A stretch of DNA of 64,000 bases from Escherichia phage vB_EcoM_JN03 (OR885871); one strand, 5' to 3'. Shown: positions 3,773 through 62,358, numbered from the stretch's first letter. Program-made: numbers and translations. The notes: generated from the sequence alone by a model not told the origin.

Positions 3773-3786
3773 AATAATTCAATAAA

Positions 3787-3806
3787 AGGGGCTTTCGCCC
3801 CTTTAC
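3787..3806 (+). terminator. rho-independent terminator
   Basis: GGGGC-TTTC-GCCCC hairpin then T-run. Confidence 0.55.
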
Positions 3807-3878
3807 TTCTTCAATATCCTTCCCTATACTTCATTCCATAAGCAGTACGACACCAACTTGAAACGAAGGAACTATATT

Positions 3879-7716: not shown

Positions 7717-7779
7717 CTCAATAGAACATCCTTCAGGTTATAATTTTGCCCATTCGTCATCAATAGGATACAGATAACA

Positions 7780-9720: not shown

Positions 9721-9866
9721 AAATACTTCAAAAATAATTTAAAAATTTATTGAAAAAGACTTTACTCTTCAATAATCATGCACTATTATAGTTCACATAG
9801 GGCGGTACACAACACCCCGCCGAATGAAAAGTGAAACGACCCAACTACATTATGAGGAATTACATC

Positions 9867-12405: not shown

Positions 12406-12487
12406 GTAACTCACCAACTTCCCCGCCGCCTTCAATCCACGAGGGCGGCGTATAATAAAACCTGCGTAAACAAACCCGAGGAACACC

Positions 12488-16172: not shown

Positions 16173-16179
16173 TCTTTCA

Positions 16180-16207
16180 AAGCCCCTAACCCAGGGGCTT
16201 TACTTTT
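16180..16207 (+). terminator. rho-independent terminator
   Basis: AAGCCCCT-loop-AGGGGCTT then T-rich. Confidence 0.55.
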
Positions 16208-16274
16208 CAAAAACCTGGTTTATAGTATTCTAGGTCACGGCAACAACGCCACATTTGACCAGAAGGACTATATC

Positions 16275-16661
16275 ATGTATCTGAACACACCAGCCGTATT
16301 AGAAGCCACCATCTCTTTCCCTATCCAAGGCCTGGCGAAGTCCAGAGCGTTCCTTAAACAAGTCCCCTTTGCGTTTAACGTCCACGGGGAGAGATACCCG
16401 CGCTCTATCCTGCGTGCCCTGCGTGATGCCCTGCGTAACGGGGCGGCGCTGACCAAGGAAGAGTTGCGATCTAAAGAAGTGCACATGATCGACCCGGAAC
16501 TGTTATCTGAAGAACCAGAACTGTACCAAGATTTCCAAAACGACGCCCGTAAAGCTCAGCTGATGTACGAGAACGACCAGCTGATGTTCAAGAAGGGCGA
16601 TGACGCTCTGTACGTGGTAGACAAGGGCACAAACCTGCCTCTGGTACTCTTCATCAAGTAA
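16275..16661 (+). CDS. hypothetical protein
   Basis: ATG ORF followed by terminator. Confidence 0.4.
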   Translation: MYLNTPAVLEATISFPIQGLAKSRAFLKQVPFAFNVHGERYPRSILRALRDALRNGAALTKEELRSKEVHMIDPELLSEEPELYQDFQNDARKAQLMYENDQLMFKKGDDALYVVDKGTNLPLVLFIK

Positions 16662-16668
16662 CCCGACC

Positions 16669-16695
16669 AGCCCCTCATCGAGGGGCTTTACTTCT
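16669..16695 (+). terminator. rho-independent terminator
   Basis: AGCCCCTC-ATCG-GAGGGGCT then T-rich. Confidence 0.55.
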
Positions 16696-16765
16696 ATAAA
16701 TCCTGCGCTTATACTTCCCAGTAATTCATTGGCCAACGCCACAAATTGAAAGCGGGTACTACATC

Positions 16766-19873: not shown

Positions 19874-20204
19874 TAGTCAATTAGAATCATGTGATATTTA
19901 TGGCGGGGATTTGAAATCTGTCGAATAATATATTATAGGAAGCTCTGCTTCCGTTCAACCTTTATTCTTTTCGTTCCTACTCGCTGAAGCTCGTAACACC
20001 GCCTTGACAGGCAGTCCCATTCCAATGCCATGGAGGCATAAAGGCGAGGAAAATACTGTACACCTCAGAACATGCGTAGAAAAGGATTATTTTTGCTTCA
20101 AAACAAATTCAAACCCCAATTGCACAACACTTACTTCAGCAACAACGGTGTTATAGCAATTTAAGGTTAAACGTTCCTGTCTTAACCTATAAAACAGGTA
20201 AGCA

Positions 20205-20232
20205 AAGAAAACCCCACATTACGTGGGGTTGG
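20205..20232 (-). terminator. rho-independent terminator
   Basis: CCCCAC/GTGGGG hairpin followed on minus strand by TTTTCTTT. Confidence 0.5.
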
Positions 20233-20379
20233 AAGATTTCTTAGACAATCTAATTTTCAGTGTCTCGGTAAGCAAATCAAGATGCCACGGCATCGATTCA
20301 CTAATTTCAAATATGCTATAGCCGTGTGCCTTTAATTCGTCACACATCACAAAATAGGAGAGTAAATCAATTTCAAAAA

Positions 20380-21183
20380 TTAAATGAAAATCTCAGTGAC
20401 ACTGTTAAATTTGACTTCGTGTTCTTTCCCACACGAAGGGCATTTAATTTTTGTCGCGTAACGAATACGCGGAATCTTTTTAAAGAAATCATTCGAAATG
20501 TCCTGAACAATCTCAGATTCAATATTGTCCCCAACCCATTTGACAAATTCATCCTTAATGCGTTGGCGTTCTTTAGCAACTTCTGGATCGATACCAGGTT
20601 CAGCCGGATTTTCCACTTTCCAAACCTGACCATCGTCGTCATACAGGCAATCGATAAAGGTGGCAATCATTTGTTCAACAGAGGATGCTTCATTAAGCAC
20701 TGAGGCATCCGAGAAGGACGGCTGGCGCATCTTTATATGATAACCACCTGGTAGATCAAACGTCTCCCTGAAGCCTTCTGGAGACACGCATTTTACCTGA
20801 TTGAGCGGGATCGGTAACACAAGCTCTTGACCACAATCTTTAACACCAGAAACTGGTTCTTCACCTTCATTTGTGTCGGCTTGAACTTTATTGTTACATT
20901 TGTAACGTATCTTCATGACCTCGCCGATAGATATACAGCGCATCTTTAAAAATACTTCTTCAGTAACACCGATTGGCAGTTTACTAAAGGGAACGCCAGC
21001 ATCAACACAACTGTCAAATAGTTGCTCCAATGTTGCCACGCGCTCACTCATAGGAGTGTTCGGATCAGCAACCTGAAGTAACATGGTCTGTTGCCCTGCT
21101 GTAAAGGCGCGGTATTTGATCACAGTCGGCCAGAAATCACTTTTATGTGTTCTCTCAGTTTTGGGCAATGATGGTAAATTCAT
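20380..21183 (-). CDS. zinc-ribbon protein, probable late/structural gene
   Basis: C-terminal KCPSCGKEH; RBS GGAGA; TATAAATA box upstream. Confidence 0.4.
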   Translation of the reverse strand: MNLPSLPKTERTHKSDFWPTVIKYRAFTAGQQTMLLQVADPNTPMSERVATLEQLFDSCVDAGVPFSKLPIGVTEEVFLKMRCISIGEVMKIRYKCNNKVQADTNEGEEPVSGVKDCGQELVLPIPLNQVKCVSPEGFRETFDLPGGYHIKMRQPSFSDASVLNEASSVEQMIATFIDCLYDDDGQVWKVENPAEPGIDPEVAKERQRIKDEFVKWVGDNIESEIVQDISNDFFKKIPRIRYATKIKCPSCGKEHEVKFNSVTEIFI

Positions 21184-23874: not shown

Positions 23875-23898
23875 CTCAATAGCAAAACGCAGTATAAT
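23871..23898 (+). promoter_or_regulatory. sigma70-like promoter (TTAACT-16 nt-TATAAT)
   Basis: Hexamers with 16-nt spacer upstream of the SSB gene. Confidence 0.35.
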
Positions 23899-27555: not shown

Positions 27556-27843
27556 ATGAAGAAATATGTTCGCCTGAACACGGTACTGGAATCTGTAATC
27601 GAATATTTCATAATGCAGCACCTGAGAGCAGAAAATGATCATGTGAGCGATGCTTTGACTTATGACCACCGGATAGTGGTTCATTCCGTCGAAATAGTGG
27701 ACGACGAATTGTTGATTGCTAACATAGAACATGCTCTCTGGGATGAAGTGTTAGATCAGTATGTTCAACCGAAGTTCACACAGATCGAGTTGTCTGCCAT
27801 GTGGCCACCTGAAACAGTTTTCAATATTGATATACAAAGTTAA
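27556..27843 (+). CDS. hypothetical protein
   Basis: ATG ORF. Confidence 0.4.
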   Translation: MKKYVRLNTVLESVIEYFIMQHLRAENDHVSDALTYDHRIVVHSVEIVDDELLIANIEHALWDEVLDQYVQPKFTQIELSAMWPPETVFNIDIQS

Positions 27844-28016
27844 TATTCACGCCAGTCCGCGCTGATACAGCGTTCCGTTGTCTAACACAGAAGTGTTAAC
27901 CAACTTTTCAATAAAAAGTGGTTTACATCTTCTAAAAAGGCAGTATATTAATGTTCCAGACGCACAGTTGAACATTAGACTGCCAAAGAAGGTTACTACA
28001 CAAAAGGGTTTTTATT

Positions 28017-28976: not shown

Positions 28977-29004
28977 TTTAATTCAGAAGCGTTCAATAGA
29001 TAAA

Positions 29005-29037
29005 GGGGCTGCTATAATAGCAGCTCCTTTTGTTTAT
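29005..29037 (+). terminator. rho-independent terminator
   Basis: GCTGCT-ATAAT-AGCAGC hairpin then TTTTGTTT. Confidence 0.5.
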
Positions 29038-35198: not shown

Positions 35199-35226
35199 TT
35201 CAATAATGGTGATCATAGGGTATAAT
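35199..35226 (+). promoter_or_regulatory. sigma70-like promoter (TTCAAT-16 nt-TATAAT)
   Basis: Hexamers with 16-nt spacer, about 35 nt upstream of ATG 35261. Confidence 0.4.
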
Positions 35227-35260
35227 CTCTATGATCTGAATATTAACCCAGGAGCACATC

Positions 35261-35605: not shown

Positions 35606-35908
35606 ATGTCAGTTGAACAAATTGGTTTTTATCAACTCCCTTCTGATCCAAAACTGCGTCAAAAGATGATGCAGACTTTAGAAAATTGTCGTGCCGCCCA
35701 GATCCGTATCAAGTCTGAACAGACCTTTGTTACCGAAGCCCTGGCTGAATTGGCAAAAGAAACAGGCATCAAAGCCGTTGATCTGCGCAAAGTCGTTACC
35801 GATCGCGCTGGTGGAACTTATACCAAGACCATCGAGACTAGCGCCAAATACCAGGATCTTTATGAGTCACTGTATCCTAACGCCGCACCTGATCGCACTG
35901 CTGAATAA
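35606..35908 (+). CDS. hypothetical protein
   Basis: RBS GAGGA before ATG. Confidence 0.4.
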   Translation: MSVEQIGFYQLPSDPKLRQKMMQTLENCRAAQIRIKSEQTFVTEALAELAKETGIKAVDLRKVVTDRAGGTYTKTIETSAKYQDLYESLYPNAAPDRTAE

Positions 35909-35918
35909 TATCGGTAAA

Positions 35919-35945
35919 AGCCCAACATTTGTTGGGCTTTAATTC
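35919..35945 (+). terminator. rho-independent terminator
   Basis: AGCCCAAC-ATTT-GTTGGGCT then T-rich. Confidence 0.55.
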
Positions 35946-36025
35946 AATAAAACTTTACTTCAATAAAACTTGCGGCTATCATTTATCCTACATTGAAAAG
36001 TTTCACTACATCATGAGAGGCAAAA

Positions 36026-37219
36026 ATGAAAGCCAAGACCTTCAGCATCCCAATTGATAATATTGGTCGTGTCAAGGAACGTCTTGCCAAACTTGAAAGA
36101 ACGGCAAACCGCCTGAAACTCGAGTTCCCTCTTGTTGAGTTCAGTGAACCATACAAAACACAACATCGCGATTCTATCACTGGCGAAAAATTTTTTCGTT
36201 GGTGGCAAGATTGTACTCTAACTGGTGAAGGCATCGACCGCCCCGTTTCCTACGGCGGGTGGAGCATTATTGGACAATTCAATCACCAATATCCAAAAGT
36301 CATCTTGAATAAATTAGCAGATGACATCCACCCAAATTTCGTTCAAAGATTCGAAGCCGAAAACGTGTCTTGGTGTGAGCATTGTAATAAATCTGTGCGT
36401 CGTCATAACACATATGTTGTTCGTAACGAACAATCTGGCGCACAGATGCTCGTGGGTAGCAGCTGCATGCATCATTATGTTCCGCATCAGAAATCGCTTG
36501 ATGCAGTTATGTCTTATTACATGTCTATTCACGAAATGTTTACTCCCGATGAAGATGACCCAGAAGGGATTTATCGGGTTAATGAACCAGATTATGTTGA
36601 CACAGAAGGATATTTGCGTAAATGCTTTCAGGTTTTGCTGTCCGGCCTGAGCATTAAAAGTGATGATTTTGGTCGAGTTCTTGGTCATATCTCTAGCGGC
36701 ACTCGTCCGGAGAAAGGTTCTGACATTGATATATTCTATAACAAGGCTGTTAAAGCCCGTGAAGATGCTCAATCAGAGATGTATCATATGATGCTTTTCA
36801 TCGCATCGTTGTCTGAAAATAACGATTTCAACGTCCGGCTGAAACGTATGTGCGAACCTGGTTATCACCTTGTTAAAGACTCAACAACAGTTCGTTGGGG
36901 AGCAGCAAAGTATTATGATTATATCCACACCCCCCGCCAAACGCGCACTGTATCAAATTGGGTTGGTGAAGTTGGTGAAATGTTAGAAGCACAGGTCAAA
37001 TTTGAAGCAAGGATTTTCCTGTATTCATCTGATTATGGTGACACGTATCTGTATACTTTCAAAACCAAGGAAGGCAATACCATTACATGGAAGACTTCCT
37101 ATATGGAAACCGAGTTTTTAGAAGGCGATATGATCATTCGAGGTCGTGTCAAAGAATTGACCGAATTCAAAGGTATTAAACAAACTCAGATTACAAGGGC
37201 AAAACTGAGGAAATTATGA
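36026..37219 (+). CDS. hypothetical protein with Cys/His cluster
   Basis: 397 aa; WCEHCNKS...GSSCMHHY. Confidence 0.45.
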   Translation: MKAKTFSIPIDNIGRVKERLAKLERTANRLKLEFPLVEFSEPYKTQHRDSITGEKFFRWWQDCTLTGEGIDRPVSYGGWSIIGQFNHQYPKVILNKLADDIHPNFVQRFEAENVSWCEHCNKSVRRHNTYVVRNEQSGAQMLVGSSCMHHYVPHQKSLDAVMSYYMSIHEMFTPDEDDPEGIYRVNEPDYVDTEGYLRKCFQVLLSGLSIKSDDFGRVLGHISSGTRPEKGSDIDIFYNKAVKAREDAQSEMYHMMLFIASLSENNDFNVRLKRMCEPGYHLVKDSTTVRWGAAKYYDYIHTPRQTRTVSNWVGEVGEMLEAQVKFEARIFLYSSDYGDTYLYTFKTKEGNTITWKTSYMETEFLEGDMIIRGRVKELTEFKGIKQTQITRAKLRKL

Positions 37220-38093: not shown

Positions 38094-38147
38094 TTCAATA
38101 AACGTTTACCCATATAATACATGGGAATTAAACAGAAGGAATAAACA

Positions 38148-39887: not shown

Positions 39888-39940
39888 ATCTATTGAAGTC
39901 TCTAGGGTTATAATAGCATGACGAATAACCCTGGAGACAC

Positions 39941-41368: not shown

Positions 41369-41445
41369 AAATTGGGGTTCTTCGGAACCCCATTCAATAA
41401 AGACAGTAGCAGTATAATTCCAAGAAATCATTACCAGGTGTTATT

Positions 41446-49543: not shown

Positions 49544-49566
49544 AAGGGGAAGTATACCTTCCCCTT
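49544..49566 (-). terminator. rho-independent terminator
   Basis: AAGGGGAAGG-loop-CTTCCCCTT then T-rich on minus strand. Confidence 0.5.
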
Positions 49567-49585
49567 TCTTCAATAACCTAAAATA

Positions 49586-52487: not shown

Positions 52488-52563
52488 TTAAGAACCTCCA
52501 AAATATTGAACACAGACTATGAAGAAAACTATGATTGTAAACAACCATGAAACAAGGAAAGAT

Positions 52564-54589: not shown

Positions 54590-54638
54590 GTTATTTGTCT
54601 CATTATGGGGTTAGGCGGCAATTATACCGCCAATTTAT

Positions 54639-55052
54639 TCAATAGAGGTCTTCGGAAAAGAGTTCTTTGAAAGGAGTGTTCTTCAAACGGACCTGATTAG
54701 TTTGTCCGGCTTCACGAGCGACCACAGCGGCCTCTTCACGGGACATCCATTGCCCATAGTTATCAATAAACCCTTGTTCACGAGTGTGGGTGGTTTCGAT
54801 AATACCTGCTTCCTTCAATCGTTTGAGTTGCGTGTTCATCAATTTGTCGTGATGTCGGGCGCTTACAACGATCACATCACCATATTTGTTGGCAGCAGCC
54901 ACAACACGCCGATCAAACTTGGTTGGGTCAGGTATATCACGAGTATACAATGCGATGTGAGTGTCGTCCACGTCCCCTTTCACCTCAGAATATAACCGAC
55001 ACCCATTAGGAGATCCAGTAGGTAAAGAACGAAAATATCCAAGTAATTTCAT
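54639..55052 (-). CDS. hypothetical protein
   Basis: 137-aa ORF. Confidence 0.35.
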   Translation of the reverse strand: MKLLGYFRSLPTGSPNGCRLYSEVKGDVDDTHIALYTRDIPDPTKFDRRVVAAANKYGDVIVVSARHHDKLMNTQLKRLKEAGIIETTHTREQGFIDNYGQWMSREEAAVVAREAGQTNQVRLKNTPFKELFSEDLY

Positions 55053-60323: not shown

Positions 60324-60833
60324 CTAGCCCAGAAACACTACTAAAGTCAAATTTGTGAGACTGGTCCGAGCATCCTGCAACATTTCACGGGCAGCGGCTA
60401 AACGTTTTACATCATGTAGAGTGTCAGAGAACACGATTATGTTAGCCTTATCGATCCTGGTCCCCATGAAATGGGTGATTGTCGTCGTGCTCTCTTTCTT
60501 GTCGACATCAGGGATAAGTAATTCTTCGCCCGTCTGAGGGTTGCGGGAAGGATAGAAGAATGCATCACGTTCACGAGAAGTATGGAAGACGCCAAACACA
60601 TATGCGTCGTTTTCGACCTGAAACTTTTTAGAAAGTAGTTTCTTCAGAGCGGCTGTATGTCCGGTCTGGCGGAGCATTCTGTAGTAGAGCATGTTGCCGG
60701 AGCAAATAGGGTCTATCACTCCCCTAATTTGACGTTCCTTTTGTATCTCATACGCATCTGCCACAAGCTGCTGGATCATATCGACATGGGCATTCATGGA
60801 GATTTCTATTTTACGTTTGATCATAGATTGCAT
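60324..60833 (-). CDS. hypothetical protein
   Basis: 169-aa ORF. Confidence 0.35.
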   Translation of the reverse strand: MQSMIKRKIEISMNAHVDMIQQLVADAYEIQKERQIRGVIDPICSGNMLYYRMLRQTGHTAALKKLLSKKFQVENDAYVFGVFHTSRERDAFFYPSRNPQTGEELLIPDVDKKESTTTITHFMGTRIDKANIIVFSDTLHDVKRLAAAREMLQDARTSLTNLTLVVFLG

Positions 60834-61967: not shown

Positions 61968-62326
61968 TCATCCAAATCGTTGTTCAGAGCCATCATCAGC
62001 TCATTATCTGGTTCGTATGAACCGGAACATAAATCATCTCGCCAAACTCCTAACGTCAACAGCGCTGCTTTAAGACGAGGATGTTGGTTCTTATCCGTTT
62101 TCAACACCAACATTCGGCACACGGCTTCGGTTTCAAAGGTATTGAAAAGAATAATCAATTGATTGATAAGTACTCGAGGACTTTTCCCTGGCACAAATCT
62201 TTTCAATGATTGATTAATTAGCGAAATTCGCTGAATGTCTACCATCAAATCATCTCTTGAGACACCAGGGGTGATATAATGTCTTAGAGCGTACTCCATC
62301 AAATTGCTTTCGTCAACGATAGCCAT
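61934..62326 (-). CDS. hypothetical protein
   Basis: 130-aa ORF. Confidence 0.3.
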   Translation of the reverse strand: MAIVDESNLMEYALRHYITPGVSRDDLMVDIQRISLINQSLKRFVPGKSPRVLINQLIILFNTFETEAVCRMLVLKTDKNQHPRLKAALLTLGVWRDDLCSGSYEPDNELMMALNNDLDEWRKPCQQSQY

Positions 62327-62358
62327 ATTGAATTATAATCAGCAGTTATACACTGGGA

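Follow-up and report, generated by a model that had tools for sequence, protein, structure and literature searches.

An intergenic TTCAATA box at two fixed distances from -10 elements in enterobacterial Ackermannviridae

The motif TTCAATA(A) is a real and strongly conserved intergenic DNA signal that stands at fixed distances from -10 elements, and it most likely marks promoters of replication-type genes. It is enriched between genes, biased in strand, placed in two spacing registers, one of which (class 2) has no -35 hexamer, conserved across genera and followed by particular classes of genes. The explanation that we favor, with a probability of about 60%, is that the box is a cis-acting promoter element of the enterobacterial Ackermannviridae, used at two fixed positions through a predicted phage protein.

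The window, that is, the whole 64-kb stretch of phage DNA analyzed here, can be assigned to Kuttervirus by its sequence; an 8-kb stretch around the tandem boxes described below is 99.1% identical to Salmonella phage moki (Kuttervirus, Ackermannviridae, the ViI-like phages). Transfer of the moki annotation by tblastn placed 96 genes in the window and left 4.1 kb between genes; the co-oriented intergenic DNA amounts to 3.9 kb. Genome-wide counts were made in two complete, unannotated genomes, those of Kuttervirus Se-F and of Taipeivirus cp18 (a Klebsiella phage), using a simple gene caller that recovered 93 of the 96 annotated genes of the window. For further comparison we used Klebsiella phage Menlow, a close relative of cp18 with ~72% identity to the window over the region compared, a 30-kb segment of Dickeya phage LIMEstone1 (Limestonevirus) and a 26-kb segment of Vibrio phage BX-1.

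On both strands of the window we counted 46 copies of TTCAATA, compared with 15.1 +/- 3.7 in dinucleotide shuffles. Twelve gene-sense copies, distributed over 10 gaps, lie in the co-oriented intergenic DNA, where 0.73 were expected, and the highest count reached in 2000 shuffles of the window's intergenic DNA was 6. TTCAATA is the most over-represented intergenic 7-mer of the window, with the -10-derived GTATAAT behind it. It is also the top 7-mer of the two whole genomes, with 24 intergenic copies in Se-F (p about 1e-20) and 21 in cp18 (p about 1.5e-17) versus 1.5 expected in each, and of the LIMEstone1 segment (6 copies versus 0.26 expected); the intergenic count of TTCAATAA is 19 in Se-F and 15 in cp18. 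All of the copies listed in the original prediction are present in the window, most of them at the coordinates given and three slightly displaced (3810 for 3811, 49569 for 49570 and 54638 for 54648). They had all been read on the plus strand, which is correct as to position, but the genes around 49569 and 54638 run on the minus strand, where the gene-strand reading is TATTGAA.

A count in coding versus intergenic DNA had been proposed as a check, and it shows that the motif is not equally frequent in genes: its density in the window is about 3.9 per kb in intergenic and 0.5 per kb in coding DNA. The coding DNA of the window holds 30 copies, versus 16-17 expected from synonymous-codon or codon-order shuffles, and these are mostly NNT-ATT-GAA or TTC-AAT-A codon strings. 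Together, TTCAATA and TATTGAA exceed the genic count of codon-aware shuffles about 1.8-fold, a mild excess with no promoter-like copy. A scan with a count of 31 genic copies found no case (0/31) in which a strong -10 hexamer followed at 11-15 nt, and the intergenic copies therefore form a population separate from the coding ones. One copy lies within the last 24 nt of gene 27556-27843 and is followed 14 nt on by TAATAT (window 27820-27846); its equivalent in LIMEstone1 lies in intergenic DNA, and the window copy may be a real promoter that overlaps the gene end.

How is the box placed relative to -10 elements? Se-F and cp18 together have 45 gene-sense boxes between genes, and the distance that separates these from a strong -10 hexamer is sharply bimodal. 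In 21 of the 45 the hexamer lies 11-15 nt downstream (2, 5, 10, 3 and 1 boxes at the successive distances, with a mode of 13), versus 1.5 expected, and in 8 it lies 7-9 nt downstream, versus 0.95 expected; no box of this sample has one at 0-6, 10 or 16-23 nt, and 12 of the 45 fit neither register. The TATAAT-like hexamer that had been predicted 12-16 nt downstream is thus found, at 11-15 nt. The 7-9 nt register, the inverted and duplicated boxes, and the nature of the flagged tandem as a TTTACT-type promoter had all been missed.

Class 2 sites consist of a box 11-15 nt upstream of a near-perfect TATAAT, with no -35 hexamer. At the modal spacing the box spans about -32 to -26, with its center near -29; its consensus here is ttnTTCAATAAa, and single mismatches (CTCAATA, TTCAATC) are tolerated. 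Of the 24 perfect intergenic TATAAT hexamers of Se-F, 13 have a box, a one-mismatch box or a reversed box, and at all 13 the sequence 16-18 nt away departs from TTGACA by at least two mismatches; in the window, boxes have 7 perfect TATAAT partners. TTCAAT itself was tried as the class 2 -35 hexamer and rejected, as the spacer would then be 12-16 nt (mode 14).

Class 1 sites carry the box 7-9 nt upstream of the -10, inside the spacer of TTTACT-N17-TATAnT promoters and centered near -23, with the consensus (G/C)TTTACTTC-TTCAATAA-N6-8-TATAnT. All nine class 1 boxes have a TTTAC-type hexamer just upstream (seven TTTACT, one TTTACC and one CTTACT). These promoters come after terminators; a second copy of the box, upstream or inverted, is frequent, and at several of them an inverted pair, TTATTGAA-N12/13-TTCAATAA, flanks the -35 hexamer. 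The canonical sigma-70 layout of -35 and -10 is present in class 1 and in the tandem promoter (TTTACT-17-TATCAT) and absent from class 2. Per complete genome, about 10-14 sites show the class 2 pattern and about 4-5 belong to class 1.

Could host RNA polymerase alone read the box? It would then be an upstream or spacer element that strengthens promoters on hypermodified-thymidine DNA, comparable to the extra consensus of T4 early promoters. Such a reading agrees with the sigma-70 consensus of the -10 partner, with the -35-like TTTACT at 17 nt in class 1, with the additional conserved regions of T4 early promoters (PMC2988021) and with the outcome of our search for an activator gene, which found none. 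We nevertheless consider it unlikely: in class 2, TTCAAT stands too close to the -10 for sigma-70 region 4, for which PMC3184105 quotes a consensus of 15-18 nt, and a single contact would leave unexplained both the inverted pairs and the existence of two registers about 6 bp apart. Because the hexamer-to-hexamer spacing is mostly 14 nt, and because the same 7-mer is reused about 6 bp closer in complete promoters, a protein other than sigma-70 region 4 would be the reader of the box. The inverted pairs that bracket the -35, together with the tandem or duplicated boxes, likewise suggest a bound protein rather than RNA polymerase alone.

A bound protein need not be an activator. The box could mainly be an operator for a nucleoid-type protein or repressor that silences or times promoters, such as a phage HU-like protein, the phage histone-family protein or host H-NS. 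Both phage proteins are encoded: an HU-like one, read from sequence, downstream of a class 2 promoter, and a 169-aa 'histone family' DNA-binding protein at 60324-60833. The position of the box inside the class 1 spacer, the inverted pairs around the -35 and the tandem or duplicated copies would also suit an operator, and by eye TCAATAAA resembles the H-NS nucleation motif, TCGATAAATT. On the hmU DNA of phage SPO1, early promoters are repressed by the HU-like protein TF1. Against an operator, the box stays at a constant 13 +/- 2 nt in promoters without a -35 and with a perfect TATAAT, and class 2 promoters precede essential replication genes, so that we regard this possibility as quite improbable. 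IHF sites (WATCAANNNNTTR) and ARG boxes, compared by eye, fit the box poorly.

In the window, four class 2 sites on the plus strand have an exact box. TTCAATA-N14-TATAAT at 28992-29018, with its -10 in the loop of a terminator-like hairpin (29002-29031), precedes the gene annotated in moki as 'small terminase subunit' (thymidylate kinase in the LIMEstone1 ortholog) and the thymidylate synthase cluster, and is kept in Menlow, cp18 and LIMEstone1. TTCAATA-N15-TATAAT at 35199-35226 directly follows the helicase stop codon and has its -10 in a hairpin loop (35211-35236); in three genera the box of this site is kept and the spacer has diverged. TTCAATA-N12-TATAAT at 38094-38118 places its -10 in the loop of hairpin 38109-38125, and TTCAATA-N13-TATAAT at 41393-41418 lies behind a terminator hairpin and the DNA ligase gene. 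Three variants, also on the plus strand, are CTCAATA-N15-TATAAT at 7717-7744, before a gene cluster with DNA primase; TTCAATC-N13-TATAAT at 12431-12456, before nrdA, with the same variant in cp18; and CTCAATA-N11-TATAAT at 23875-23898, before the ssDNA-binding protein gene, where LIMEstone1 has an exact TTCAATA.

Reversed boxes occur at three sites, 11-12 nt from the -10. TATTGAA-N11-TATAAT at 39891-39914 (plus strand, hairpin 39904-39932) precedes DNA ligase and is conserved in this reversed form in Kuttervirus, Taipeivirus and Limestonevirus. The other two read TATTGAA on the gene strand, here the minus strand: TATTGAA-N12-TATACT at 49551-49575, with its -10 in the hairpin loop of 49544-49565, and TATTGAA-N11-TATAAT at 54621-54644, which overlaps a TGA stop codon and has its -10 in the hairpin loop of 54614-54631. 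Two further gene-sense boxes on the minus strand have other surroundings. The one at 52504-52510 lies just upstream of a ribosome-binding site and has no -10 at either register, and the one at 62326-62332 directly follows a TATAAT, is not conserved in cp18 and is probably non-functional.

Class 1 is represented on the plus strand by TTTACT-TC-TTCAATA-N8-TATACT at 3802-3830 (box 3810-3816). An extra box (3778-3784, plus strand) precedes that of class 1 by 32 nt and abuts the terminator hairpin at 3785-3804; this two-box arrangement is found in Se-F and cp18 as well. At the site 9748-9789 (plus strand) the two members of an inverted pair, TATTGAA (9748-9754) and TTCAATA (9768-9774), are 13 nt apart, with TTTACT (9761-9766) between them; N9 and TATTAT (9784-9789) follow. 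At 27907-27949 (plus strand) a box stands 8 nt upstream of a TTTACA-N16-TATATT promoter, an arrangement kept in LIMEstone1 but not in Menlow.

Other intergenic features of the window were recorded. CTAAATA(C), which is among the most enriched intergenic k-mers of Se-F and cp18, recurs at 2434, 6730, 7326 and 22227 (plus strand) and 47428 (minus strand), mostly before structural or late-type genes, and is probably the late (gp55-type) promoter of Ackermannviridae. Two baseplate genes are separated by 506 bp (19874-20379) with no moki gene, a terminator-like hairpin, a TATAAT and no Rfam match. The region 16173-16765 holds an extra 128-aa ORF (16275-16661) that is absent from moki and has no Pfam family; it is flanked by two near-duplicate modules of a terminator plus a TTTACT promoter, and looks as if it were a gene cassette inserted with its own promoter copy.

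The pair of copies singled out in the original prediction lies at 35938-35969 on the plus strand. Both copies are there, but in place of 13-nt copies separated by 3 nt we found a single 16-nt unit, TTTA(A/C)TTCAATAAAAC, repeated twice: Tandem Repeats Finder reports a 16-nt unit in 2.2 copies with 94% matches at 35937-35971, TTTAATTCAATAAAAC and then TTTACTTCAATAAAAC, and the GenBank record of moki marks the position as a repeat_region. Unit 1 (TTTAATTCAATAAAAC, 35938-35953, plus strand) supplies an extra upstream box (35943-35949), which has no usable -10 at 11-15 nt. In unit 2 (TTTACTTCAATAAAAC, 35954-35969, plus strand), TTTACT (35954-35959) overlaps the box (35959-35965), and the -10 hexamer TATCAT (35977-35982, plus strand) follows with a spacer of 17 nt to TTTACT and of 11 nt to the box; a promoter scan of the window reports this TTTACT-17-TATCAT. 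The tandem begins in the T-tail of a hairpin, GCCCAAC-ATTT-GTTGGGC (35920-35937, plus strand), which comes after the upstream gene and is not called by a simple terminator scan. Downstream of the promoter lies a gene for a protein of 397 aa (36026-37219, plus strand; phrog_2319) with no Pfam family.

We suggest that the tandem is a duplicated '-35 plus box' module, in which unit 2 and TATCAT would form a working promoter for gene 36026-37219 and unit 1 would add a box 16 nt upstream. Menlow and cp18 have an exact second copy and a degenerate first one (CTTACTTTCAAAAC), and LIMEstone1 has an exact first copy and a degenerate second one; on this comparison the two-copy layout predates the genus split. 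The LIMEstone1 record annotates a 'putative middle promoter' at the orthologous site, with the same -10 but with CTT as the '-35 signal'. We did not adopt this signal, which was taken from the T4 consensus and differs from the TTCAATA box.

Downstream of the class 2 sites in the window lie the genes for NrdA, DNA ligase and the ssDNA-binding protein, the clusters of primase and of thymidylate synthase, and the genes that follow the replicative helicase. For ten proteins encoded downstream of class 1 promoters, a Pfam search returned no families. This split between the classes mirrors that between early and middle genes (replication and nucleotide metabolism) of T4 (PMC2988021), here judged from sequence alone.

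About half of the class 2 promoters carry their -10 at the tip of a strong hairpin, in its apical loop (dG -14 to -23 kcal/mol); a T-run comes after most of these hairpins, which therefore resemble terminators that harbor a promoter in the loop. In Menlow, cp18 and LIMEstone1, compensatory changes preserve the stems, and G.T wobbles are confined to the sense strand, a sign that the hairpin forms in RNA. Such structures bear on the proposal, made along with the original prediction, that the motif is an RNA processing signal, and equally on a termination-associated signal at the 3' ends of transcription units. Many copies do lie 0-15 nt after stop codons and adjoin hairpins, and the hairpins have the character of real RNA structures. 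When the sites were tested as intrinsic terminators, though, the box proved not to be part of the stems, from which its distance varied, and roughly half of the class 2 sites lacked a strong hairpin. The distance to the hairpin base varies, whereas the distance to the -10 is fixed, and reversed copies, which would differ as RNA, are conserved at one locus in three genera; an Rfam scan of the window gave no match at or above the gathering score. With the box tracking the -10 and not the hairpins, an RNA signal is disfavored and in our view very improbable.

The box is conserved in position across genera. The 7-mer is intact in 14 orthologous gaps of Se-F and cp18 (14 of the 24 Se-F boxes), between flanks that are 62-64% identical. 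In the alignments the box and the -10 are kept as islands, separated by spacers that have diverged in sequence and kept their length (Se-F 94997, 25208, 32698 and 151767), and boxes are present at orthologous gaps of Menlow and LIMEstone1. That an AT-rich intergenic composition, or the mild excess seen in coding DNA as well, produced such a pattern by chance has a negligible probability and is already refuted by the enrichment (16-fold over dinucleotide-preserving shuffles, top k-mer in three genera), the strand bias, the fixed spacing and the positional conservation. Beyond these genera, the 26-kb segment of BX-1, a distant member of the Ackermannviridae, contains no TTCAATA; CTTCAAA is enriched in its intergenic DNA, and three tandem copies stand ahead of a TATAAT upstream of rIIA (20687-20797). 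In this small sample, CTTCAAA may be a diverged or shifted version of the box. An IMG/VR scan for TTCAATAA-N12-TATAAT returned, among the matches listed, almost exclusively single chance matches.

Which protein might bind the box? With queries taken from the T4 record we found no homologue of MotA in the window, Se-F or cp18 (tblastn and phmmer, best E-value 1.5 or worse) and none of AsiA in the same three sequences; the best AsiA E-value, 0.09 in a tiny database, came from a match inside a much longer ORF (about 256 codons versus 90 aa for AsiA). Kutter 2011 also found no MotA or AsiA in ViI-like phage. Just upstream of the tandem, 35606-35908 encodes a 100-aa 'transcriptional regulator' (phrog_639) that occurs almost only in Ackermannviridae records. 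Seven of 19 homologues of this protein show faint matches to Pfam Phage_DsbA (best E 0.008), on which the RefSeq/PHROG label seems to rest. Comparison with T4 DsbA by hhalign gave a probability of 0.2%, phmmer found no match among PDB sequences, and the AlphaFold model (pLDDT 77, helical) had no PDB fold match with an E-value below 2.5. The protein is a positional candidate only for binding the box, which the searches neither support nor exclude.

What, then, is the mechanism that we propose? From sequence and analogy we infer that the sites are transcription starts, that their timing is early or middle and that a binding protein exists. The box is probably bound by a putative phage protein, and we propose that it works like the MotA box but with an unrelated factor, because its sequence is not that of the MotA box and neither MotA nor AsiA has a homologue here. 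At class 2 promoters, host sigma-70 holoenzyme would read the -10, and the putative phage DNA-binding protein on the box would supply the missing upstream contact, as the MotA box does; these promoters would serve genes of replication, recombination and nucleotide metabolism. At class 1 promoters the same protein would more plausibly modulate the promoter or shut it off, and one protein acting as repressor at class 1 and as activator at class 2 would fit.

Several observations count against this preferred explanation: (i) the 11-15 nt spread exceeds the 12 +/- 1 bp of the MotA box; (ii) 12 of the 45 boxes fall outside both registers, and coding DNA shows the mild excess; and (iii) a monomeric, oriented activator fails to explain the three reversed sites.

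A bolder version, which we put forward tentatively and consider fairly unlikely, is that the Ackermannviridae take over sigma-70 in a manner like T4 sigma appropriation, through unrelated proteins, with one protein acting in two registers via TTCAATAA to turn TTTACT-type early promoters off (box at -23, often paired) and -35-less replication promoters on (box at -29). Were this takeover true, many replication promoters would sit in the loops of terminators that close the transcription unit before them.

The box and its two registers amount to a concrete promoter map that is conserved across the family. With this map, the timing of prereplicative transcription in ViI-like phages becomes directly testable, and the map is relevant to the annotation and engineering of phages widely used in biocontrol and therapy. 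A literature search found no paper describing the motif and no transcript mapping for Ackermannviridae. The novelty of the box is provisional: the abstract of a 2012 article by Adriaenssens in Arch Virol on 'Viunalikevirus' reportedly mentions 'conserved regulatory sequences', and the article may already describe the motif. The genome papers of CBA120 and AG3 could assign neither early nor middle promoters to ViI-like phages and report no MotA, AsiA, Alt or ModA (Kutter 2011; Anany 2011). Promoters in the LIMEstone1 paper were assigned by similarity to T4 consensus sequences.

The closest comparison is with the middle promoters of T4, in which the MotA box, centered near -30 and 12 +/- 1 bp from the -10, replaces the -35 (PMC2988021). 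The likeness to this architecture that had been predicted holds for the conserved box 11-15 nt upstream of a sigma-70-type -10, the missing -35 and the replication and nucleotide genes downstream; it fails for the sequence of the box and for MotA and AsiA, which have no homologue. In both systems a box of 7-9 bp takes the place of the -35, about 12-13 bp upstream of a sigma-70-type TAtaaT (the class 2 mode of 13 nt from the 7-mer corresponds to 12 nt from TTCAATAA), single mismatches in the box are tolerated, and genes of replication, recombination and nucleotide metabolism follow. In contrast to T4, whose box is (a/t)(a/t)TGCTT(t/c)a, the box here is TTCAATAA, its spacing is 11-15 nt, it has a second register in promoters that contain a -35, and it may be inverted, tandem or occasionally reversed. 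As for the phage-encoded activator that had been predicted, the geometry fits and suggests one, but MotA and AsiA have no homologue and the searches found no binding protein. TTCAATA(A) is most likely a family-wide promoter box for which the structural analogy with T4 is right, with an activator that is a proposal and is not MotA.

Class 1 promoters resemble instead the early promoters of T4, with (G/C)TTTACT, 17 nt and TATAnT, after terminators and before small genes of unknown function. T4 early promoters are strong sigma-70 promoters with a GTTTAC-type -35. One class 1-type site (GTTTAC...TATTAT) is annotated as a putative early promoter in the LIMEstone1 record. What sets class 1 promoters apart from T4 early promoters is the conserved TTCAATAA block of their spacer, and no TGn extended -10 was seen in the class 1 sites inspected. 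A box between -35 and -10, sometimes with an inverted partner 12-13 nt away, also recalls spacer operators and the TF1 system of SPO1, with which these phages share the coding of HU-like proteins; the DNA of ViI-like phages is thymidine-hypermodified. Unlike such operators and TF1, the geometry of class 2 would point to activation rather than repression.
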